A stretch of DNA of 63,201 nucleotides, the filler included, from Candidatus Babelota bacterium (GTDB taxonomy: Bacteria; JAGOBX01): the NCBI GenBank assembly GCA_017999075.1. It is 13 parts of 13 records of this genome, joined end to end, with 100 filler letters (N's around TTAATTAATTAA, not from the genome) between each part and the next. Parts side by side here need not be neighbours in the genome. Positions count along the whole stretch, not along the records: positions 57,918 to 60,511 come from JAGOBX010000578.1; 12 more parts are not named here. One strand, 5' to 3'. Position 1 is the first letter of the stretch, and every line of letters starts with the position of its first letter. Below are positions 1 to 60,511 of this stretch, in pieces. The notes beneath the pieces are model-generated. The model saw only the letters and a list, made by a program, of their open reading frames with translations, was not told where the DNA came from and searched no databases. The translations under genes were made by a program, and so were the position numbers.

Positions 1-2141
1 TTCACCAAAGGAATCTTGTTTAAAAATGGCACTCCTGCATTTGTTGTGTTAACAACATTTTTTATCAAGCCTCCAAGTGCTATTGTATTCCCATTTTTAA
101 CTACCACAGTTGTTTTAGCTTCACGTTTAATAATATCAACTCCTGTGGACAAAACCGAGGCGCGAGCTTCATTAACCTGCGGCGCAAGTTCAAGAGTTAT
201 ATATGTATCATTATTAATATGGGGAAGCACTTCAAGTATAATTCCCACTTCCGAACGCAATGGTGTTTGAGTTATATTGCCTGACTGAGATTCAGTAGTC
301 TGAACATCAGTAACAATATTATCAGAAATTTTTATCATAGCTTTTTTATTGTCAATTGTAGTTATTCTCGGCGAAGATAAAAGATTAAGATTAGAGTTTG
401 AATCAAGATTTTTCAATACCAGATTAAATTGTTTTACAGATAAAGTTCCATAAGTAGGTTTCCAGTCTTTAAGATTAACTGTCATCAAATCCGGCGATGA
501 CTGTATGTTAACATTTCCGAACTGCGACCAGTTTATCCCGAGACTGTTATCTTTATCAAGTCCCACTTCAATAAATTTAGCTTCTATTAAAACCTGTTTT
601 ACAGGTCTATCAAGTTCATTAATTATTTCACTCAATTTTTCCAAAAATGACTGGATATTAGTGTTCACTATAACAGAATTTGTGCGCTGGTCAACTACAA
701 CTTTAAAATAATTATTTTTATTTGCAGTAAGTGCAATCTGAGAACTGAATATTTTCTCAAGAGCATCTTTAATTTCTTCTGCTTTCGAATATCTCAAATA
801 ATAAATTTTTGTTAACAACTTTTCTATATCATTTCTGGTGGCAATATCTATTTTATCAACAATTTCCGTAACCTGTTTAACATAATTTTTTACTCCGGTA
901 ATAATCAAAGCATTTATATTGTCGTCAGCTTCAACTATTCCTGATCTGGTGGAAGACATTTTCTGCAAAATATTTTTCACATTAGAAGCTATAACATATT
1001 TAAGTTTAATAATTTTGGTTTCTTCGTAAAATCCTTCTTTCCTTTTTTCCCATATATCTTTTGAATCAAGAAGTTTCACTACAGATTCAGCTTTATCAAG
1101 GTATTCCTGCAAATCTGTTATCATTATTGAGTTTGAAGACGGCAGCACTTCAACTATCCCGTTAGACGACAGTATGGATTTAACAGGCTTATTTATTTCA
1201 TCAGCTGCTGCATATTGAATTTTAAAAATTTTTGTTTTATACGGTTCAGGCATACTTGACAATCTGTTTGCCGGAACGACTTTAATCAAATCTCCGTCTA
1301 TCACATAACCATAACCATTAACTTTCAATATACTGTCAAGAACTTTAGTTAACGGCGTATTTTTCAATGATACAGTCACTTTCCCTGTAATTTCAGAACT
1401 GGCAATAATATTCATGCCTGCCGACTGACTCAATAATCTTAAAACATTCTGCAATTCCGCCTCTTTCAGATCCAAAGAAATCAAATTATCTTTTTTCTCG
1501 ATTTTGATTGAATTTCCGCTATTCAACGAAGAATTTTCATAATTTTTATCAGCCGAAATTTCTTTTTTTACGAATTCATCAGACTTTGAAATGGTATTTT
1601 TTTTTTCCGAAGGAAAAGACACAGCCGAATTTTCTGCCGATTCATTTTTTTCCGGAATTTGTACAGGTTTCGAAAAAACTTTTATGTTTTCAGAGATTGT
1701 TGGTTTTGGGTCACCATTATTTCCTGAATTTTCCAAAACTGTATTTTTTCCAATAGTTATAACAAGTATGCCTCCGCCGTGCGAATAAATATACTCTGCA
1801 TTATCTTCCAAATCAAAAACCATTCTTGCAACATTATTTTTAAACTGACCAAACCGAACCTGTTTAACCGCAGAACCTGAACCGATAACGGTTTTAGTTT
1901 CCCCTTTTTTCTGGTTCCATCTGCATCCGGTCAAGTCAGCAACAATTTTTTTTTCTTCCGGCAAACTAAAAATCTCAGGAGTAACAGAATCATTCAAAGG
2001 AAGACGAAATACAATTTTTCCGTTGTTCTGTTCAAATTTTAATAAAAACGGTTTAACAGAAACAGCCGCATATAAAGAATTAATCAATATTAAAAAGATA
2101 ATAGCGTTTAACATCAAAAAACGGTATGTTTTTTTTTTCAT
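1..2141 (-). CDS. pilQ: Type IV pilus/T2SS secretin (PilQ-like: signal peptide, AMIN-like, STN, N-domains, secretin domain); 3' end runs off the window
   Basis: Missing from the ORF track because it has no stop in the window. My minus-strand translation from ATG 2141 gives MKKKTYRFLMLNAIIFLILINSLYA..., ISLDLKEAELQNVLRLLSQSAGMNII (STN), ELDRPVKQVLIEAKFIEV, LLSSPRITTIDNKKAMI, VGIILEVLPHI, TTVVVKNGNTIALGGLIK and GVPFLNKIP, which are secretin hallmarks. It lies downstream of pilM/N/O/P-like genes. Confidence 0.9.
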   Translation of the reverse strand, partial: MKKKTYRFLMLNAIIFLILINSLYAAVSVKPFLLKFEQNNGKIVFRLPLNDSVTPEIFSLPEEKKIVADLTGCRWNQKKGETKTVIGSGSAVKQVRFGQFKNNVARMVFDLEDNAEYIYSHGGGILVITIGKNTVLENSGNNGDPKPTISENIKVFSKPVQIPEKNESAENSAVSFPSEKKNTISKSDEFVKKEISADKNYENSSLNSGNSIKIEKKDNLISLDLKEAELQNVLRLLSQSAGMNIIASSEITGKVTVSLKNTPLTKVLDSILKVNGYGYVIDGDLIKVVPANRLSSMPEPYKTKIFKIQYAAADEINKPVKSILSSNGIVEVLPSSNSIMITDLQEYLDKAESVVKLLDSKDIWEKRKEGFYEETKIIKLKYVIASNVKNILQKMSSTRSGIVEADDNINALIITGVKNYVKQVTEIVDKIDIATRNDIEKLLTKIYYLRYSKAEEIKDALEKIFSSQIALTANKNNYFKVVVDQRTNSVIVNTNIQSFLEKLSEIINELDRPVKQVLIEAKFIEVGLDKDNSLGINWSQFGNVNIQSSPDLMTVNLKDWKPTYGTLSVKQFNLVLKNLDSNSNLNLLSSPRITTIDNKKAMIKISDNIVTDVQTTESQSGNITQTPLRSEVGIILEVLPHINNDTYITLELAPQVNEARASVLSTGVDIIKREAKTTVVVKNGNTIALGGLIKNVVNTTNAGVPFLNKIPLV

Positions 2142-2174
2142 TTTTTTTCCACCCTGACGCCGAATTTCCATTGA

Positions 2175-2684
2175 TTAAAGTTTATCAGGTTTCTGCATAT
2201 TGACATAATACAACTGATCATTCTGTATTATAGTAACCTGATTATCCGAAATTTTATATATACTAACACCAAACAATTTATCGCCTTCTTTCACAATATT
2301 ATCATTTATAATTGCATATTTTATATTATTTATCAGTATTATTCCACTTAATTTAAATGAGTCAGGACTAACAACAGCACCGGAAGTATCATTATTTAAT
2401 GGACGTTTTACAGATTCGGTTTTATTTGCAAATATAACAGTAAACGGATTACGGACATATGAATCAGAATATGTTTTAGAAACCGGAACAGCATTTTCTT
2501 TTTTGGAAACAGGAGAAACAGTCATATTTGATTTTGCGTAAATAATATCCAATTCTGTTTTTATAAAGTTTTCAATGTTTTTACTTTGGTAATTTCTTTC
2601 TAATATTGCAAAACTCCATGCGGAAACAAGAACAGCTATTATAATCAGCAATATTATTTTACCTTTTTTATCAAGTTTATTCAT
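2175..2684 (-). CDS. PilP/GspC-like pilus assembly protein
   Basis: N-terminal TM helix, RNPF motif, C-terminal FKLSGII...YAIINDNIVKEGD beta domain; sits between the pilO-like gene and the secretin. Confidence 0.65.
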   Translation of the reverse strand: MNKLDKKGKIILLIIIAVLVSAWSFAILERNYQSKNIENFIKTELDIIYAKSNMTVSPVSKKENAVPVSKTYSDSYVRNPFTVIFANKTESVKRPLNNDTSGAVVSPDSFKLSGIILINNIKYAIINDNIVKEGDKLFGVSIYKISDNQVTIIQNDQLYYVNMQKPDKL

Positions 2685-3217
2685 TGCTGTGAAAATCCTG
2701 TAAAACTAATTTTTATTTCAAGTAAATTCGAGTTATCCGGTTTTCTGATATCAATATCATGCATCTGTATCATATATTTATAATCAGAAATTTTATCAAT
2801 AAACCTTAAAAAATCATTATAATCCGAATGTATTGTCATATTAAGAAAATTATCTGAAAAATATTCATAATATAAAATTTTTTTACCAGCTGAAGAATTC
2901 AATATAATAATATTATTATTTTTTGCTTCAGTAAAAATATCATTGATAATATTTAAAATCTGCTGTTTGTCCTTCAAAAGATAAAACTCAAGTTCTTTAT
3001 TTTTTTCTTTATTTAATATAAATTCCATTTTTTTTTCAAGAAGTTCCATATGTCGGTTTTTAAGCTGAACAAAATCAGACTGGGCTTTTTCAGTTTGGAT
3101 TTCATATTCAGAAACTTTTTTTTGAACAGGCCCAAGCACATATATTTTCCATAACAAAAGAAAACAAACAGAACTTATAACAATAAGTTTTTTCAGTTCT
3201 TTATCGGAAATTTTCAT
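2681..3217 (-). CDS. pilO: PilO/GspM-like pilus assembly protein
   Basis: N-terminal TM, coiled coil, C-terminal ferredoxin-like segment (SDYNDFLRFIDKI...); 4-nt overlaps with both neighbours. Confidence 0.7.
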   Translation of the reverse strand: MKISDKELKKLIVISSVCFLLLWKIYVLGPVQKKVSEYEIQTEKAQSDFVQLKNRHMELLEKKMEFILNKEKNKELEFYLLKDKQQILNIINDIFTEAKNNNIIILNSSAGKKILYYEYFSDNFLNMTIHSDYNDFLRFIDKISDYKYMIQMHDIDIRKPDNSNLLEIKISFTGFSQQ

Positions 3218-4782
3218 AATAAAGTAGCCTCTTTCAAAACAGCCGTTATTTCAAATCTGGTCATATTATATGATTTATAAACTTCCCTCGAAGAATTATC
3301 AAGATTAATATTCATAAACAAATTAGTTTTATCAAGATTTACTATGAAAGAAGGCACCAGCATAGGAGAAACGCTCCATCCCTGAATTACGATTACAGAC
3401 TGAGGTTTTGGTTCAACCTTCAAAGTTTTAAAATTAAATTTTGTAAACATTACTCCCTGAGGAGCTGATCTGGATATAAGTTTAAACAGATTATTATAAT
3501 CATAATTGTTCGATTCAATAAAGATTTTGATTTTTTTGTTTACAGTTACAATATTCTGCGAAGACAAGAATTTGTCAAGTTCAGAAATCTGGCTCTGCAA
3601 TTGGTTGTTTAAATAAATTTTAGAATCATATAATTTTTTATGCGTATTTTCTATATATGAAGGCAGTGTAATCATTGTAAGAATTATCATTATCATAACC
3701 AGCTGAAACACAGGTTTTTTTATAAGTCCGGCATCCTCGCTGAATTCAATAGCTGAACGGTTTATCTTTTCATTTAATTTTATTGCATTTTTTTCATTCA
3801 TATTATTCATCGAATAAATCAATCCTGACTTATCCTTTATCTGATTATTTTCCGGAACCGAATATATCTGAATTGATTTGTTAAGTTCTGATTTGAATAA
3901 CTGGGGCAAACCATTGATTTTAGAAAGAAATCCTGTTGCAAAAATCTGATTCACCTGACTTATTTTATAATTTGATTTCAAAAAATTTTCAGTTTTTTTA
4001 ATCTCGTCAGCAATCAGCTTCAATTCAATTTTTATATTATTGGAAAATTCTATATAACTATTTTTTTCAATATCAAAACCTTCAGGTTCAGAATAAGGAA
4101 GCAAATGTATGTCCTTTATGCGTTCCGAAATGTTCCCGTCTTCTTTTTTAAAATATTCGGCTATTATTTTTGTCATCTGTTCGGCAATATTTTCAAAACT
4201 ACGTTTATATTTTATATATCCGTTTTCAAAAAATGTCAGAACTATATTATCGCTATCCATATTAATCAAAAAAAAGTGATTATCTAAAACCGCGTCAGGC
4301 TGATAAACAGAAATCAAATTTTCAAACACAGATTCTTCAGAAACGATAAATCTAATTTTGAATTTACGTTCAGAAAGAATTTTCACAATTCCATCAACAA
4401 AATTTTTTGAAACAAGCTCAATTTTAAAATTCTGTTTTTTAACGGAATCTTCAACTACACTCTCAATTTTTTTAAAATTCCAATAATATTGTTCAAATTT
4501 AGCAGAATAAAGTTTAACGAGTTCCCAGTATATAATTTCAGCAGAATTCGATTTATCCGCAGGCAATTTTAAATATCTCAGTATTATATTTTCTGAAGAA
4601 ATAACAAGTTCGACAGGAATCCGGCTATACTCATCAGGTATATTTTTAACAATTTCTTTGTATTGCTGAATAAAATCAAGTGATTTACTTAATTTTTTCG
4701 AAATATGATTGACAATAATAGACTTATCAATCACAGTAACATTAACTAATTTACCGGATATATATATAATTATTTTCGACAT
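3214..4782 (-). CDS. Fused PilM (actin-like) + PilN protein (GspL-like architecture)
   Basis: N-terminal PilM-like region (IILRYLKLP, FLINMDSDNIVLTFFENG, IFATGFLSKINGLPQLFKSEL), a TM helix, then a PilN-like domain (LISRSAPQGVMFTKF...IQGWS...FIVNLDKTNLFMNINL). The ORF track starts at TTG 4833, which coincides with a -35 box; ATG 4794 or 4782 is more likely. Confidence 0.75.
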   Translation of the reverse strand: MSKIIIYISGKLVNVTVIDKSIIVNHISKKLSKSLDFIQQYKEIVKNIPDEYSRIPVELVISSENIILRYLKLPADKSNSAEIIYWELVKLYSAKFEQYYWNFKKIESVVEDSVKKQNFKIELVSKNFVDGIVKILSERKFKIRFIVSEESVFENLISVYQPDAVLDNHFFLINMDSDNIVLTFFENGYIKYKRSFENIAEQMTKIIAEYFKKEDGNISERIKDIHLLPYSEPEGFDIEKNSYIEFSNNIKIELKLIADEIKKTENFLKSNYKISQVNQIFATGFLSKINGLPQLFKSELNKSIQIYSVPENNQIKDKSGLIYSMNNMNEKNAIKLNEKINRSAIEFSEDAGLIKKPVFQLVMIMIILTMITLPSYIENTHKKLYDSKIYLNNQLQSQISELDKFLSSQNIVTVNKKIKIFIESNNYDYNNLFKLISRSAPQGVMFTKFNFKTLKVEPKPQSVIVIQGWSVSPMLVPSFIVNLDKTNLFMNINLDNSSREVYKSYNMTRFEITAVLKEATLL

Positions 4783-36419: not shown

Positions 36420-37864
36420 GATAGACGACAGATTTTTTTAGGAGGAAATCGAAATGAAAAAAATGGAAATTTTAGTGATACTGTTTTTTATATTCTTAAT
36501 ATATTTTAATTCAAAAAATTCGGCTATATCAGAAACAATTCAAAATAAAGATAATAACACAATTAAATTGTCAGATAAGCAATTTACATTTGAAGCAGAT
36601 AATTATATCCAACCAAATTGTAATGTTTTTTTTTCAGATGACATAAATGGTGCACAAAAGTTAAATATATTATTCGATTCACCAGATAAAGATTCAGTAA
36701 ATGATAAAGAACTATTAGACACAGTAAGATGCGGATTAAAGAAAACCAAACATAATAAGAACTCCATTTTACGTTGGTTAGGGAATAAATATATTTGGGG
36801 TAAATCACCACAGAATAAATATGCAATTGAGATAATGTATCATGCAAGTTCATCTGACGAGCGAGAAATACGTGGCGCAGCAATATATTTTGGGTTATCC
36901 GTGACGGAAAATAAAACAGAAAATATATTTAAAGCGTTAGTTGATTCATGTATGAAAAGTAAAGACTGGAACGATGTTGGCCGAGCTATTTGGGGTTGCA
37001 GGCAAGATAAGAATAAATTATTACCATATTTAGAACCATATATAAAAAGCAACGATGATGAAATCAAGCAAGTGGCGATAGCTTTTAAAAATGAAATTAT
37101 TGGAACTGAAGAATTCAGAGTTTGGCAAGCAAGGAAAATTAAAAATGACGCGGCAATAAAATATAAAGAAATATTGCCAAAATTAAAAGCTGATTTTATT
37201 AAAGGCGATTTCCATAAACAAAAAATTGTCCTCGAATATTTCGGGAAAAATCAAGACATATTAACACAAATGGATGATTCTTTTTTAGAAGGTTGGGGAA
37301 GGTGTGTTAATCATCCAGATGTGGCAGTGCGTCGGGAAACAGCAAGAATTGTTGGAAGTTTTTGGATTTGGCATGCAAAAGAACAATCGCCAAAAGCAAT
37401 TGATATAATTTATGAATTATCAAATGATACTGACGTTGATGTTGTTGGAAATGCAGTATATAATGGGTTATCAACTATAAGAGATAAAAACGATAAAATT
37501 GTAAATCAACTTTTAAATATTGCAAAACGATATTATAATAATGAAAAATATAATAATGGACGTTTCTTTAATAATAATTATAAAAGATGTTTTTTGGGGT
37601 TGAAAAATAAAAAATACGAATGTTCTATATTGCTTGAAAAAGAAATTGAGCAAAATCATACTGACCCTAAAATATGGTATCCAGCTTATGGAGTGTATAA
37701 AGATTTTATAGGTGGGGAACCATCAAATTTGACTAAAGAACAAAAATTATATGTTGAAAATAAAAATAAATAAAAATCCGTCGTCTATCTTCATCCTGTC
37801 CCTCGTGCCTTTGGCACGGCGGCTTTGCCGTCATCCGCTCTGCGAGCGGACGAGGACAGGACGT
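36420..37864 (+). mobile_element. Integron-like gene cassette 1 (HEAT-repeat gene)
   Basis: Left end GATAGACGACAGATTTTT (36420-36437) is 17/18 complementary to AAAAATCCGTCGTCTATC (37772-37789) right after the stop codon, followed by an attC-like hairpin. Confidence 0.75.
36454..37773 (+). CDS. Exported HEAT-repeat protein of unknown function
   Basis: AGGAGG SD; signal peptide; duplicated module (LGNKYIWGKSPQNKYAIEIMY...GAAIYFGLS and VGSFWIWHAKEQSPKAIDIIY...GNAVYNGLS). Confidence 0.7.
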   Translation: MKKMEILVILFFIFLIYFNSKNSAISETIQNKDNNTIKLSDKQFTFEADNYIQPNCNVFFSDDINGAQKLNILFDSPDKDSVNDKELLDTVRCGLKKTKHNKNSILRWLGNKYIWGKSPQNKYAIEIMYHASSSDEREIRGAAIYFGLSVTENKTENIFKALVDSCMKSKDWNDVGRAIWGCRQDKNKLLPYLEPYIKSNDDEIKQVAIAFKNEIIGTEEFRVWQARKIKNDAAIKYKEILPKLKADFIKGDFHKQKIVLEYFGKNQDILTQMDDSFLEGWGRCVNHPDVAVRRETARIVGSFWIWHAKEQSPKAIDIIYELSNDTDVDVVGNAVYNGLSTIRDKNDKIVNQLLNIAKRYYNNEKYNNGRFFNNNYKRCFLGLKNKKYECSILLEKEIEQNHTDPKIWYPAYGVYKDFIGGEPSNLTKEQKLYVENKNK

Positions 37865-37871
37865 GTTACAC
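37783..37871 (+). repeat. attC-like recombination site
   Basis: GTCTATC-TTCAT-CCTGTCC-[C]-TCG...CGA-GGACAGG-ACGT-GTTACAC, 89 bp, with three internal mini-hairpins; a near-identical copy lies at 52797. Confidence 0.75.
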
Positions 37872-37907
37872 GCCATTTCGCAAAAAAAATGAAATACAAG
37901 ATAATTG

Positions 37908-37942: not shown

Positions 37943-38227
37943 ATGAAATTGATATTATGGAATTCAGATAAAAATAAAAAATTAAAAGTTGAGCGTGGAA
38001 TTTGTTTTGAAGATATATTATATTACACTGAAAATGAACTAATAATAGACATCATACAAAATCCGAATATAGATAAATATAATAGGCAGAAAATTTATTT
38101 GATAAACATTAATAATTATGTTTATTTAGTGCCATTTGTCGAAGAAGCCGAATATGTATTTTTAAAAACAATAATTCCAAGCAGAAAATACACTAAATTA
38201 TATTTAGGAGTGGATACAGATGAATAA
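37943..38227 (+). CDS. BrnT-like (DUF497/DUF4258-type) toxin
   Basis: WNSDKNKKLKVERGICFEDI...YVYLVPFVE...FLKTIIPSRK. Confidence 0.8.
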   Translation: MKLILWNSDKNKKLKVERGICFEDILYYTENELIIDIIQNPNIDKYNRQKIYLININNYVYLVPFVEEAEYVFLKTIIPSRKYTKLYLGVDTDE

Positions 38228-38507
38228 TAGAAAAATAAAATTAGATAAGGAAGAACAAGATATTTTAGAAAGCGTTGAAAATGGTGAATGGATTTCAATT
38301 CCAAATGTTAAAACAAAAATAAAAAAATATGCTGATTATGCGCGAAACACACTAAAAAAAGATAAGCGTTTAAATATCAGAATGTCAGGTGTTGACTTAG
38401 AAATGATACAAAGAAAAGCAATTGAAGAGGGAATTCCATATCAAACACTTATATCAAGTTTAATTCATAAATATGTTTCAGGACGACTTGTTGAAAGTCG
38501 AGTATGA
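38220..38507 (+). CDS. Cognate antitoxin with C-terminal RHH/CopG-like domain
   Basis: LDKEEQDILESVENGEW...KKDKRLNIRMS...KAIEEGIPYQTLISSLIHKYV; overlaps the toxin stop. Confidence 0.8.
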   Translation: MNNRKIKLDKEEQDILESVENGEWISIPNVKTKIKKYADYARNTLKKDKRLNIRMSGVDLEMIQRKAIEEGIPYQTLISSLIHKYVSGRLVESRV

Positions 38508-57917: not shown

Positions 57918-58922
57918 ACTTGATATAATTAATATTTTTAATAAGAGTAATGCTGTAAAACTATGGAATAATTTAAGAGTTTGTAGTGTTGACGGAACTA
58001 CTTTTACACTAAATAAATCAAAGGAAATAGTGGCTGAATTTCCGCTTTTAAATAAAGCAAGATTTCCTAAAATGATTGCCTGTGTTTTATACGATATTTA
58101 TTCTAAAATACCGTTAGATATTGAAACTGGTAATTATACTTGCGGAGAAAGAACGTTATTAGCTGAAATTATTGAAAACTTAAAAAATAATACTCTGTTA
58201 TTACTCGATAGGGGCCACCATGCTTATTTGGATATATCATAAATTAAATCTATATTATTAATTATATTATGAGAATCGGAACTCGTTTGAAATATAAAAT
58301 ATTAAAAAAAATTAAGCGCGATGATTTGATAATTGAACTTACCGCTTGCAGACAAACCATGAATAATTGTAAGGCTAATTTATCGGAATACGAATTAAGC
58401 TCTATGTCGGAAAAAATGCAATTACGTCTAATAAAAACAACGATGAAAGGATTTAGAACCAGATATATTATAACATCGTTAATTGATTTTAAAAAATATC
58501 ATTATAACGACATTTGTAAACTATACTGTGACCGTCGGATTATTGAAGATTTTTATCGTGATTTTAAGCATATTCTTAGGATCGAACAATTTCATTCTCA
58601 ATATATTGATGGTATTTATCAAGAACTTTTTGCTGCTATGATTTTGACTATAATTCTTCAAAAGTATATTTTTACAGCTTCTGATTTATATGAGATTCCT
58701 TATGAACAAATTAGTTTTAAAAAAACTTTTAATCTTTTATCAGATATTATTTTATTATTAAATTTTGCGGATAATAATAAAGAGTTAATAGAAGATTTGT
58801 TTTTAAAATTTATCGCTTTCTCTTCACAAAAAAAACAGGTCGGACACGCATTATGAAAGAATAATGTTTAGAAAAACTCGTTGTATCGATTACAAATCAC
58901 GATGATAGAGTTAATGCCATTG
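57918..58922 (+). mobile_element. IS4-family element remnant with right terminal inverted repeat
   Basis: Transposase remnant followed by GAGTTAATGCCATTG (58908-58922), resembling IS4-type ends. Confidence 0.6.
57919..58856 (+). pseudogene. IS4-family DDE transposase, 5' truncated and frameshifted
   Basis: Frame 1 carries WNNLRVCSVDGT and LLLLDRG, then stops at 58242. A second frame carries the Y-(2)-R-(3)-E-(6)-K motif LYCDRRIIEDFYRDFK. Confidence 0.85.
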
Positions 58923-58968
58923 GAAGACCGTCCCTCAAATCTCAAATCTTCCCTCAAATCCAAATCTC
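58923..58968. repeat. Short tandem CAAATC(T) repeat with GACCGTCCC head
   Basis: GAAGACCGTCCCTCAAATCTCAAATCTTCCCTCAAATCCAAATCTC. Confidence 0.5.
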
Positions 58969-59391
58969 TATGAGATGCAGAGCTTCATTAAGGCGTAAAC
59001 CTGAAGAATACATTACGGCAAATATACATTTGTATTTAAGATTCGGCGTATGATTAAGGATTTTTTGAATTTCAAATTTACATAATGCTACAGGCAATTG
59101 TTTTCTGCATTTAGGTCTGATGATACCAAGATCTTTCCATTCGCGCTTTAATGTCAATGTCTATATCAATTGTGCGGCGCGCGCTGCCTGTTCAATATAA
59201 GACGCTGACAGTTTCAAATCATCAATCAGGTAAATCAGATAATCCTTAATATCCTGCGGCGGCAAATTTGCCGGGGATTTCCAATAATATTAGGCAAGAC
59301 GCCTTACAGTTCCGGTATAAAGCAAAATTGTTTTTTCCTAATAACCGGCAAGCTTCAAATCCTGCATAAACCGTTTTCGTAATTCTGTCAT
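58954..59391 (-). pseudogene. Tyrosine recombinase with N-terminal SAM-like domain, decayed and 3' truncated
   Basis: ATG 59391: MTELRKRFMQDLKLAGY*EKTILLYTGTVRRLA*YYWKSPANL...IKDYLIYL...QLI*TLTLKREW...RKQLPVAL...MYSSGLRLNEALHL. Three in-frame stops; ends after box I. Confidence 0.85.
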
Positions 59392-59552
59392 AATGACACC
59401 ATCCTTATATAATATAAAATTAAAATGTCATTTTAAGAGAAATAAGATTATTTAAATACAGGTAAAAATCAAATCAGCTGAAAATGTATTTAACAATTGA
59501 ATTATTCTGTGGCCACAAATATAATGTTATGAAAATGCAGCTTAGCGGTTTA

Positions 59553-59635
59553 GTTCAACTCGGATTTTTACCTCACGCTGCGCGCTGCTGCTTCGCAGTC
59601 ACTCACTTCGTTCGTGAGTAAAAAGCCTGTTTAGG
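59553..59635 (+). repeat. attC-like site upstream of the integrase remnant
   Basis: GTTCAAC (RYYYAAC)-TCGGA-TTTTTAC-[C]-TCACG...CGTGA-GTAAAAA-GCCT-GTT; same spacing as 37783-37871 with unrelated sequence. Confidence 0.7.
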
Positions 59636-59672
59636 GCTTAGGACAGTGCTATTTTTAAACAGGGTGATCCAA

Positions 59673-60119
59673 GTGAAAAAGAAAAAAAATTTTTATATTA
59701 TAATTATGGTATTTCTTATTAGTAGTTGTTCTTTTGTAAAAAAAAATGCTCCATTGCGAACGAATAACTCAAAAGTTGCAATAAGATTTTATGATGTTGA
59801 TGATATAGGTAAAGTGTATATAAAAAATGAGAAATCGATTGAGAAAAAAATATTAACAATTAGGACAAGCGAAGATTCAGGATGGCGAGATATTGATTCT
59901 TATTTGTTAGAAGGAATAAATCATTTAAAATTTGAAATTTTTAATGGAGCGTATGGCGGATGGTCTGGAAAATATGAAATATCGATAAATGACGAAATCG
60001 TTGTTAGAGAAAAAATTAATTCTGAAGGCAAACCAAATCCTGTAAATGATATAGCTTACAGCAAATATTATGAAATAATAAAAAGCGGGAATAATTTTAA
60101 AATGAAAATAAATGACTAA
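59673..60119 (+). CDS. Putative lipoprotein (cassette-like gene after the attC site)
   Basis: GTG 59673: MKKKKNFYIIIMVFLISSC lipobox; beta-rich domain (VDDIGKVYI...LLEGINHLKFEIFN). Confidence 0.65.
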   Translation: MKKKKNFYIIIMVFLISSCSFVKKNAPLRTNNSKVAIRFYDVDDIGKVYIKNEKSIEKKILTIRTSEDSGWRDIDSYLLEGINHLKFEIFNGAYGGWSGKYEISINDEIVVREKINSEGKPNPVNDIAYSKYYEIIKSGNNFKMKIND

Positions 60120-60273
60120 GATAATAATTGATTTATAAAAAAAAGGTTCTCGAAATGGAAAATTAAATAGATGCAAATTATTTTTTTAAAAAAATAAAAT
60201 ATTTCAAACCATTTTATAAAATTGATGAGAAAAAATGATTTTCATAAATTGAATAAAAAAAGTCAGGAAGAAG

Positions 60274-60511
60274 ATGATGATAAAAAAAATAATATTTATT
60301 TTATACACAATTATATTATTTGGAAACATTATAGATGCCGGAGATTTAACAGACTATTACTTCAAAACAAAAGATAAAATTGGCAATGAATTGAAAAACA
60401 GCTTACATAATATAATAAAAAAACATAAAGTTGTAAGTTATAATTCATTGTGGATTCATTATAAAAAAACTGATGCAAGAGAAAATGGGGAACCATACTG
60501 CATATATACAA
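60274..60511 (+). CDS. Secreted endonuclease I/Bsn-like nuclease, N-terminal fragment
   Basis: Signal peptide, then DYY...GNELKNSLHNIIKKHKVVSYNSLW...TD...CIYT. Confidence 0.7.

Follow-up and report, generated by a model that had tools for sequence, protein, structure and literature searches.

Does the decayed tyrosine recombinase gene in this Candidatus Babelota sequence end beside an attC-like hairpin because its element targets such sites, or does the pairing have another origin? The sequence analyzed, referred to here as the window, is 63,201 bases long and is composed of 13 separate contigs (2.5-12 kb) joined by spacers of 44 N, a 12-mer and 44 N, so two features on different segments need not lie near each other in the genome. 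It derives from a draft genome (G000) of 594 contigs, 3.83 Mb, 30% G+C and 87% completeness, which was compared with its three nearest genomes (G001-G003), likewise drafts; the locus in question occupies contig C189 (window 57918-60511, 2594 bp). An earlier note on this DNA had proposed a mobile element that targets attC sites. The analysis makes it highly probable that positions 58971-59559 are the decayed left part of an insertion sequence (IS) of the ISAzo26 type, IS91 family, which inserts repeatedly and site-specifically into the R'' boxes of attC-like sites with its junction within GTTC/AAC (the slash marks the junction). The copy on C189 is a remnant of an IS91-family member, not a functional one.

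The left terminus and its hairpin

The recombinase pseudogene (58971-59391, minus strand) was identified from its reading frame, Pfam matches and homology, and corresponds to codons 1-140 of a tyrosine recombinase of ISAzo26 (IS91-associated) type. Read from the ATG at 59391, it translates as MTELRKRFMQDLKLAGY-stop-EK...; it matches Phage_int_SAM_4 (E 5.9e-15) and the first 40 positions of Phage_integrase, is 66% identical to a 277-amino-acid relative (P0002), and scores 52 bits against the integron integrase model. Upstream of the start codon lies the non-coding left-end region of the element (59392-59552, minus strand), delimited by within-genome blastn, the last ~85 nt of which (59470-59552) form a block recurring in all four copies in the assembly. 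The region is followed by GTTCAAC at 59553-59559 (GTTGAAC on the element's sense strand), a terminal 7-mer at the position of an R'' box, or inverse core, which is conserved beside TAAACCG in relatives. This inverse core had been noted about 160 bp upstream of the gene; the measured distance to the start codon is 162 bp.

On the element's sense strand, the left terminus at 59540-59559 reads 5'-GTTGAAC-TAAACCGC... and is common to relatives; on the window strand, GCTTAGCGGTTTAGTTCAAC ends at 59559 and would therefore be the reverse complement of a left (terIS-type) end. Upstream of the recombinase gene, relatives carry GTTGAAC (or GTTGGAC or ATTGAAC)-TAAACCG-N-CGGTAG on the sense strand; the ACCG-N-CGGTAG palindrome is not retained in this lineage. 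The pattern GTTGAAC- or GTTGGAC-TAAACCG was detected at 27 places in the 168 loci fetched, from several phyla, in agreement with the GTTCAAC motif that the earlier note had placed ahead of such recombinases. In one genome with three identical copies, identity begins exactly at GTTGAAC.

Immediately beyond the terminus lies a resident attC-like site (59560-59638, plus strand) with the 2-nt spacer TC and a GC-rich variable centre, recognized by its fold, a covariance model and homologues. The hairpin is 66 nt long, with arms at 59562-59577 and 59613-59627 and one bulged C at 59572. Folding of 59560-59628 as single-stranded DNA gave z-scores of -3.0 on the plus strand and -2.6 on the minus strand, with 1 and 3 of 200 shuffles as good; in wider 116-nt windows around the site the fold was not better than that of shuffles (z -0.6 and -0.4). 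When this site was left out of its construction, a covariance model still matched it over its full length (59548-59638, 42.3 bits, E 9e-6), and an Rfam gathering scan of the whole window returned 0 matches. The claim of a complete attC-like hairpin thus holds for the bulged stem and the covariance model match, but not for the R' box, which is atypical.

The box itself indicates which partner supplied it. Resident boxes carry T at position 4 in 18 of 18 sites (xxxTA[A/T]C) and the box here carries C, so GTTC is element-derived, while from sequence the AAC at 59557-59559 could be attributed to either partner. This corresponds to the junction between GTTC and AAC that had been put forward.

Recurrence at one register of resident sites

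A scan for GC-rich bulged hairpins located them at gene boundaries on several contigs. The open reading frames (ORFs) are co-directional, and each hairpin follows a stop codon and has its bulge in the 5' arm on the coding strand. Contig C272 carries 7 such hairpins in 8.6 kb, C503 carries 3 and G001:C257 carries 3, and the cassettes encode Gp49/HTH and BrnT/CopG toxin-antitoxin pairs and a DNA methylase. An alignment of 18 element-free cassette-junction sites from this genome and two relatives shows the layout R'' (xxxTA[A/T]C), 2 nt, stem with bulged C, variable three-way centre, stem, 5 nt, R' (G[T/A]TA...). In this alignment 81% of cells are paired, a level that none of 500 shuffles attained (60.9% in shuffles), and the covariation score of 0.539 compares with 0.206 in shuffles and at most 0.142 in slid controls; pairing in the R helix is 72%. 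In about half of the sites the R boxes have ATC...GAT, not the canonical AAC...GTT, which is unusual.

The covariance model matches 16 sites in this genome, 14 of which are training sequences, together with 20 sites in the same-genus genome, 8 in the same-family genome and 0 in the same-class genome. The two matches in this genome outside the training set are both hairpins adjacent to the element, namely the one on contig C85 (68.9 bits) and the window site described above. Element-free sites of this genome lie on C178 (window 37780-37876), C272, C503, C25, C277 and C124. The first of these is the site at 37783 to whose spacing the present hairpin had originally been compared; as it lies on C178 and the finding on C189, the two sites may or may not belong to one array.

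Further features of the resident family can be recorded here. The hairpin centre contains a conserved three-way junction with a GTCA motif, and directly after the C178 site lies a pair of genes for a BrnT-like toxin and a CopG-like antitoxin (window 37943-38507; Pfam matches below gathering cut-offs). Covariation of the middle bases of R'' and R' (AAC with GTT, ATC with GAT) was considered as proof that the C85 box is foreign and was rejected, as only 11 of 18 sites pair there. Contig C213 contains 1.2 kb of very GC-rich, strongly folding sequence (2100-3270; up to -96 kcal/mol per ~200 nt), and two tyrosine recombinase genes lie on the same contig.

Is the terminus found at such a hairpin more than once? 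A 20-mer search of the assembly returned five matches, of which four are real copies (C189, C85, C132 and C492) and one is a chance match, and blastn to the window's left end aligned C85 at 95% over 161 nt, C492 at 88% over 92 nt and C132 at 80% over 91 nt. All four left ends are bounded at the same nucleotides, with conservation reaching GTTCAAC (+1-2 nt). On C189, C85 and C132 it ends at GTTCAAC + T(C/T), and three different GC-rich hairpins follow; within this genome, conservation thus stops at the predicted point, with different hairpins beyond it. The copy on C492 (4017-4103) is a solo left end with GTTCATC, followed by T-TGTCC-GATAAGC, which resembles a 3' spacer and an R' box without a hairpin. 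That on C132 (482-569) is also a solo left end, fused to recombinase codons ~28-40, with ~185 nt including the start codon deleted. A downstream ORF is present in two of the copies, and in both it runs opposite to the element.

Element-free counterparts of these sites are available. The C85 hairpin is 89% identical to element-free hairpins on C178 and C124, and the window hairpin has element-free homologues in G002 (91%) and G001 (84%), each located between co-directional ORFs. The empty sites read ATTTAAC-TC-GGCTTTTTAC[C]TC... in G002 and GTGTAAC-TC-GGGCTTTTAC[C]TC... in G001, in the same register as the window's GTTCAAC-TC-GGATTTTTAC[C]TC..., and the window hairpin differs from them by three compensatory stem changes. 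A metagenome contig from run X2 carries a further element-free relative with the box AGTTAAC, reading ...CAGTTAAC-TC-GGA...GCC-CGACC-GTTATCT. Uninterrupted versions of the hairpin are accordingly present in two sister genomes and in a metagenome; the earlier note had proposed a search for uninterrupted versions of the cassette.

These data bear on the simplest alternative, in which an ordinary IS91-type element inserted at GTTC-like tetranucleotides that happen to lie near hairpins, or in which the hairpin is a constant internal part of the element. GTTCAAC or GTTGAAC occurs 497 times in the genome, and the ends of IS91-family elements do contain palindromes (PMC13181058). Three of the four termini, however, lie at one exact register of sites that together make up ~1.5 kb of 3.8 Mb (16 sites of ~95 nt, 0.04% of the genome), so three ends at this register are not attributable to chance. 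Moreover, the three hairpins differ from one another and have element-free homologues at cassette junctions in this and the sister genomes, and they are therefore not part of the element. We regard coincidence or an internal hairpin as extremely improbable. The proposed targeting of attC sites is instead supported by the recurrence of the end at one register of three different hairpins and by the covariation of the resident sites.

Public sequencing runs were consulted as Logan contigs, which report presence only; four runs from two studies contain the stretch, and runs X4 and X5 hold small shares of it. Over 58962-59570, summed contig depth is 16-26 in run X1 and 77-88 in run X3, compared with 6-7 and 3-4 in the flanks (3- to 20-fold), so the element part is multi-copy or is also present in more abundant organisms. 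Loose contig ends continue into a C85-type hairpin after 59561 (X1 and X4) and into a further hairpin after 59569 (X3), and some variants in X1 are interrupted or carry internal deletions, ahead of 59257 and past 59455.

Intact relatives and the decay of the present copy

To which family does the recombinase belong, and could it be the integrase of the arrays? Among 286 candidate proteins, 25 were found at E <= 0.001, the best after P0002 being P0003 (59% identical); genome and metagenome scans for closer intact relatives revealed nothing above ~45% identity. The intact relatives are 277-290 amino acids long, compared with the 140 codons left here, retain the catalytic residues R...HxxR...H...Y, and are composed of Phage_int_SAM_4 and Phage_integrase domains. 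Their best-scoring family is NF040815 (XerA / 'integron integrase', 199-231 bits), followed by XerC/D and TIGR02249, and the nearest solved chains are XerD 1a0p, XerA 5hxy and 4a8e, and VchIntIA 2a3v. Against TIGR02249 they align in two stretches that skip model positions ~177-236 and score 147-186 bits, below the cut-off of 265. The stretch for the additional IntI-specific domain is absent from full-length relatives, which do not reach TIGR02249 or NF011946; its absence had been foreseen.

In loci from other phyla, an ORF of 350-400 amino acids starts 5-15 nt after the recombinase gene, and in all six relatives tested it encodes Zn_Tnp_IS91 + Y2_Tnp. The Aromatoleum aromaticum plasmid NC_006824, reached by plasmid tblastn among the matches listed, carries the same pair, annotated in RefSeq as 'tyrosine-type recombinase/integrase' and 'IS91-like element ISAzo26 family transposase'. 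Several ISfinder IS91 members besides ISAzo26 also have an upstream tyrosine recombinase gene. The pairing with an IS91-like (Y2) transposase that the earlier note had put forward thus applies to the family, but no Y2 gene accompanies the recombinase in the present assembly. Y2 matches in G001 and G002 were rejected as the partner, being ~21% identical to the relatives' transposase and having no such recombinase beside them. On the Aromatoleum plasmid, the element (L197, 2363-5822) is followed by another recombinase gene.

The family assignment also addresses a second explanation, namely that the locus is an integron-like platform in which the recombinase is the integrase of the arrays, the 85-nt block combines the cassette promoter Pc with an attI-like site, and the hairpin is the first cassette boundary. 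The divergent layout, with the recombinase on the left and a promoter-like site on the right followed by the hairpin and a gene, resembles classical integrons; no canonical IntI reaches its cut-off in G000-G003; and the best NCBIfam model of the recombinase is named 'site-specific tyrosine recombinase/integron integrase'. Yet the block is multi-copy, with four ends in the assembly and 3- to 20-fold the depth of the flanks, and each copy lies beside a different hairpin, unlike a single platform. Across phyla, the relatives have a Y2 transposase as partner and inverted repeats at their boundaries, in the manner of an IS, and the IntI-specific stretch is missing. In addition, a complete hairpin has the block in place of its R'' box; recombination of attI with attC would leave only the last R' bases there. 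A platform is accordingly quite improbable, and so is the variant that the earlier note had kept in reserve, in which the recombinase serves these cassettes.

A tyrosine recombinase of 405 amino acids on contig C9 (1970-3187, L212) has an N-terminal extension of ~130 amino acids, shares 39% identity with P0002 and lacks the IntI stretch. In G002, a broken homologue of it (C50, 1923-2739, L172) precedes three attC-like sites by ~1.5 kb and points in their direction; it was rejected as a copy of the present element, being of the longer type, broken and without a Y2 gene. The C9-type recombinase may be the integrase that serves these arrays.

The ends of intact relatives were examined in loci from a scan built on the four closest proteins, in which 545 of 603 candidate stretches were confirmed and the best 80 kept. 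Downstream of the transposase gene, relatives, ISAzo26 included, carry the inverted repeat ...GGCTTAGTYCAAC, so that their right end reads ...GGCTTA-GTYC-AAC. The terminal 7-mers form inverted repeats and match the attC box consensus, GTTGAAC on the left corresponding to GTTRRRY and GTYCAAC on the right to RYYYAAC. A hairpin of 9 or more pairs starts 0-6 nt beyond the right end ...GTYCAAC in 15 of 20 intact loci, compared with 7 of 100 random places, and this enrichment makes hairpin association a family trait. As the two ends are inverted repeats, the local junction ...TTAGTTC/AAC-NN-stem is the same whichever end faces the hairpin. Searches for more copies in the genomes holding L008 and L015 found only the three already known in each, and the L003 genome yielded none. 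In the four Bacteroidota loci L003, L007, L010 and L015 (~3800-4000), the element lies directly downstream of and co-directional with a recombinase gene of ~350-400 amino acids with an N-terminal extension, a position as if at the head of an array.

The right ends raise a third possibility, that the element is itself a gene cassette which has its own attC and moves by attC x attC recombination, its terminal GTTGAAC being a hybrid R' produced by a crossover between G and TT. Both the fit of the terminal 7-mers to the box consensus and the hairpins after right ends are in keeping with such a cassette. In the tandem pair of L016 (2633-7121), moreover, one hairpin stands between the copies and the second left box, GATGAAC, occupies the place expected of the R' of the hairpin after the first copy, while the sequences of L008 and L010 stay alike through the entire hairpin beyond the right end and part immediately past GTTA. 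In the window, by contrast, the hairpin is on the wrong side and of the wrong polarity: the sense-strand spacing of stem, 2 nt and GTTGAAC, with the bulge in the 3' arm, is that of the R'' side of the resident layout, and the element is antisense to the cassette ORFs in both copies with a downstream ORF. L009 has no right-hand hairpin and abuts a tRNA-like gene (judged by eye), as would follow from plain transposition. A cassette is hence unlikely, and plain cassette-type integration between G and TT is disfavoured for the window by spacing and polarity. Site-specific insertion of an IS91-family element into R'' boxes remains the preferred account.

Several observations weigh against that account. 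Of the 15 right flanks with a hairpin, ten belong to a single Bacteroidales clade and are not independent, the other five being L004, L013, L022, L067 and ISAzo26, and hairpins at left flanks are only modestly enriched (6 of 23, compared with 7 of 100 controls). The antisense insertion that had been proposed holds in this window, where the hairpin lies at the left end; in the intact relatives examined it lies at the right end, and the element follows the direction of the hairpin's top strand. It is not obvious how a single simple insertion rule could produce both arrangements, and the opposite orientation here may stem from insertion in either direction or from an intervening rearrangement. 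The 3' box of the window site, GTTTAGG at 59629-59635, is atypical and only 1 nt from the stem, the family norm being a 5-nt spacer followed by G[T/A]TA, and the breakpoint can be narrowed only to the interval between 59556 and 59560. Decay has left the C132 hairpin beyond recognition by the covariance model, and the four copies, found in a draft metagenome-assembled genome, represent a population, not one clone. No Y2_Tnp gene of ISAzo26 type was detected in this assembly (87% complete), and neither the window nor the assembly nor the three nearest genomes contain the right end, the other junction being unseen; with no Y2 gene in the assembly or the nearest genomes, the IS91 partnership here is by homology only. 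Finally, no IntI above the cut-off was found in the draft genomes G000-G003, and the sites are therefore termed attC-like, the name 'attC' resting on structure and context.

How did the C189 copy decay? Its frame contains in-frame stops at codon 18 (TAG, 59338-59340), codon 34 (TAA, 59290-59292) and codon 77 (TAG, 59161-59163), and its alignment to full-length relatives stops after ...NEALHL at codon 140 (~58971). The gene is cut at 58970/58971 by a probable IS4-family insertion sequence, which extends from the contig start to its right end (57918-58970, plus strand; NCBIfam transpos_IS4_1, Pfam DDE_Tnp_1). The copy is thus dead and truncated, with three stops, as had been read from the sequence at the outset. 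The IS4-family transposase is represented by fragments in two frames (58030-58242 and 58269-58856), which match NF033592 (transpos_IS4_1) at E 4.7e-7 and 5.4e-14, below its cut-off, and the gene start lies off the contig. No further copy of this IS4-family element is present in the assembly, where it is single-copy.

Run X3 contains less degraded versions. A high-depth contig of 555 nt spans 59003-59557 with 13 differences from the window, and at the three stop codons it reads TCG, GAA and TGG (Ser, Glu and Trp), as in P0002, so the window copy is the degraded counterpart of a sequence whose frame is uninterrupted over codons 1-129 elsewhere. In an X3 contig, no IS4 lies to the left of 58971, which makes the IS4 insertion specific to the window's copy; one frame there, ...VSDMDSSRM, fits the family consensus, but it is one base out of frame with the preceding part, and that copy may not be intact there. 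The reverse complement of 58906-59032 is also found in an X3 contig fused to sequence from ~200 nt upstream of 57918, which suggests an IS4-family element of ~1.3 kb with terminal inverted repeats of ~65 nt or, alternatively, an artefact of the assembly graph.

On the other side of the hairpin lies a small lipoprotein-like gene (59646-60119, plus strand; ...IIIMVFLISSC..., likely GTG start at 59676), which was recognized as an ORF; its product has no Pfam family above threshold, and no attC-like hairpin or covariance model match was found downstream of it. Within the element's terminus, a promoter-like site (59497-59525, plus strand; TTGAAT-17 nt-TATAAT, 10 of 12 matches) points outward into the hairpin and this gene. 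Shuffled sequence yields 3.2 +/- 1.8 promoter-like sites and the region 6, so that the match by itself is weak; all four copies preserve the two hexamers exactly or almost so. Judged from its sequence, the site could act as an outward promoter for the downstream gene.

Mechanism and relation to known systems

The intact element would consist of a tyrosine recombinase gene followed by a gene for a Y2 HUH rolling-circle transposase. Its left terminus lies exactly at the place expected of the R'' box of a resident hairpin, in the register AAC + 2 nt + stem and antisense to the cassette genes, and the same terminus is joined at the same register to other, different hairpins in the genome and the source metagenomes. 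Two routes can be envisaged. In the first, the Y2 transposase, which acts on single strands, would take the 5'-GTTN / ...AAC box at the base of the folded strand as its target, cutting and joining beside it in keeping with the IS91 tetranucleotide rule, under which GTTC-type tetranucleotides beside palindromes are used. In the second, the IntI/Xer-like recombinase would dock or integrate a circular intermediate whose joined ends form an R''/R' pair. By either route the inserted copy would restore a box, and the attC-like site would stay formally complete. Decay of the C189 copy would then have begun with the three stops in the recombinase gene and continued with truncation by the IS4-family element, the transposase gene and right end being lost. 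The individual C189 copy is ordinary debris and, dead and incomplete as it is, cannot settle the mechanism.

More tentatively, we hypothesize, while considering it a doubtful extension, that ISAzo26-type elements form a third class of integron parasite, part transposon and part cassette. Their terminal boxes would complete the R' and R'' of attC, a recombinase without the IntI domain would recognize folded attC and steer or catalyze insertion, the Y2 transposase would supply the single-stranded copy, and related short recombinases might run arrays in lineages without a canonical IntI, such as this one.

Integron cassette arrays constitute a large reservoir of adaptive and resistance genes, and to our knowledge only two kinds of mobile element home in on attC sites. 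Homing of IS91-type elements to attC, if true, would give an IntI/Xer-like recombinase a function, would add a route by which cassettes are interrupted, re-promoted or moved, and would link single-strand rolling-circle transposition to single-strand attC recombination. The window provides a case from a thinly sampled lineage, with three independent junctions and element-free versions of the same sites, and a sample from the second study contains an abundant stop-free version of the first 129 codons.

In its gene content, the element resembles the IS91 family (IS91, IS801, IS1294, and the subgroup of ISAzo26 and ISShvi3), as its recombinase relatives are followed by Zn_Tnp_IS91+Y2_Tnp. In the IS91 family, terIS is described as the left end, which has a single palindrome and a GTTC-type tetranucleotide for cleavage, and oriIS as the right end, lying beside a 5'-GTTC, CTTG or GTCC target tetranucleotide (PMC13181058). 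The ends of the relatives resemble the terIS described for IS801 and IS1294 in having a GTTS tetranucleotide and the subterminal palindrome ACCG-N-CGGT (PMC13181058). As in the IS91 family, no target duplication is visible. Unlike the published members, the terminus lies at one register of attC-like hairpins and the terminal 7-mers fit the attC box consensus. In the sections of the literature that the search returned, no target rule beyond the tetranucleotide is stated for the IS91 family, and the full-text passages retrieved contain no description of attC targeting by IS91-type elements; one of them mentions a copy of ISShvi3 located 'adjacent to an attC site' in an integron of Shewanella and draws no rule from it (PMC9229058). 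The targeting behaviour thus appears to be undescribed in print.

The recombinase resembles IntI and XerA/XerC/XerD in its best model families, its nearest structures and its location beside attC-like sites. It is unlike IntI in scoring below the cut-offs, lacking the IntI-specific stretch, being multi-copy and being coupled to a transposase.

Among mobile elements, the closest parallels are IS1111-attC elements and group IIC-attC introns, both described as invading attC sites (PMC9229058, PMC3001079). With these, the present element shares a site- and orientation-specific presence in the attC sites of arrays. Group IIC-attC introns also carry outward promoters (PMC3001079), a parallel to the promoter-like site in the present terminus. 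The machinery differs in each case: IS1111-attC elements employ a DEDD transposase with a guide RNA and group IIC-attC introns a ribozyme with a reverse transcriptase, whereas a Y2 HUH transposase and a tyrosine recombinase are combined here. The position occupied within attC probably differs as well from that of IS1111-attC and group IIC-attC elements.

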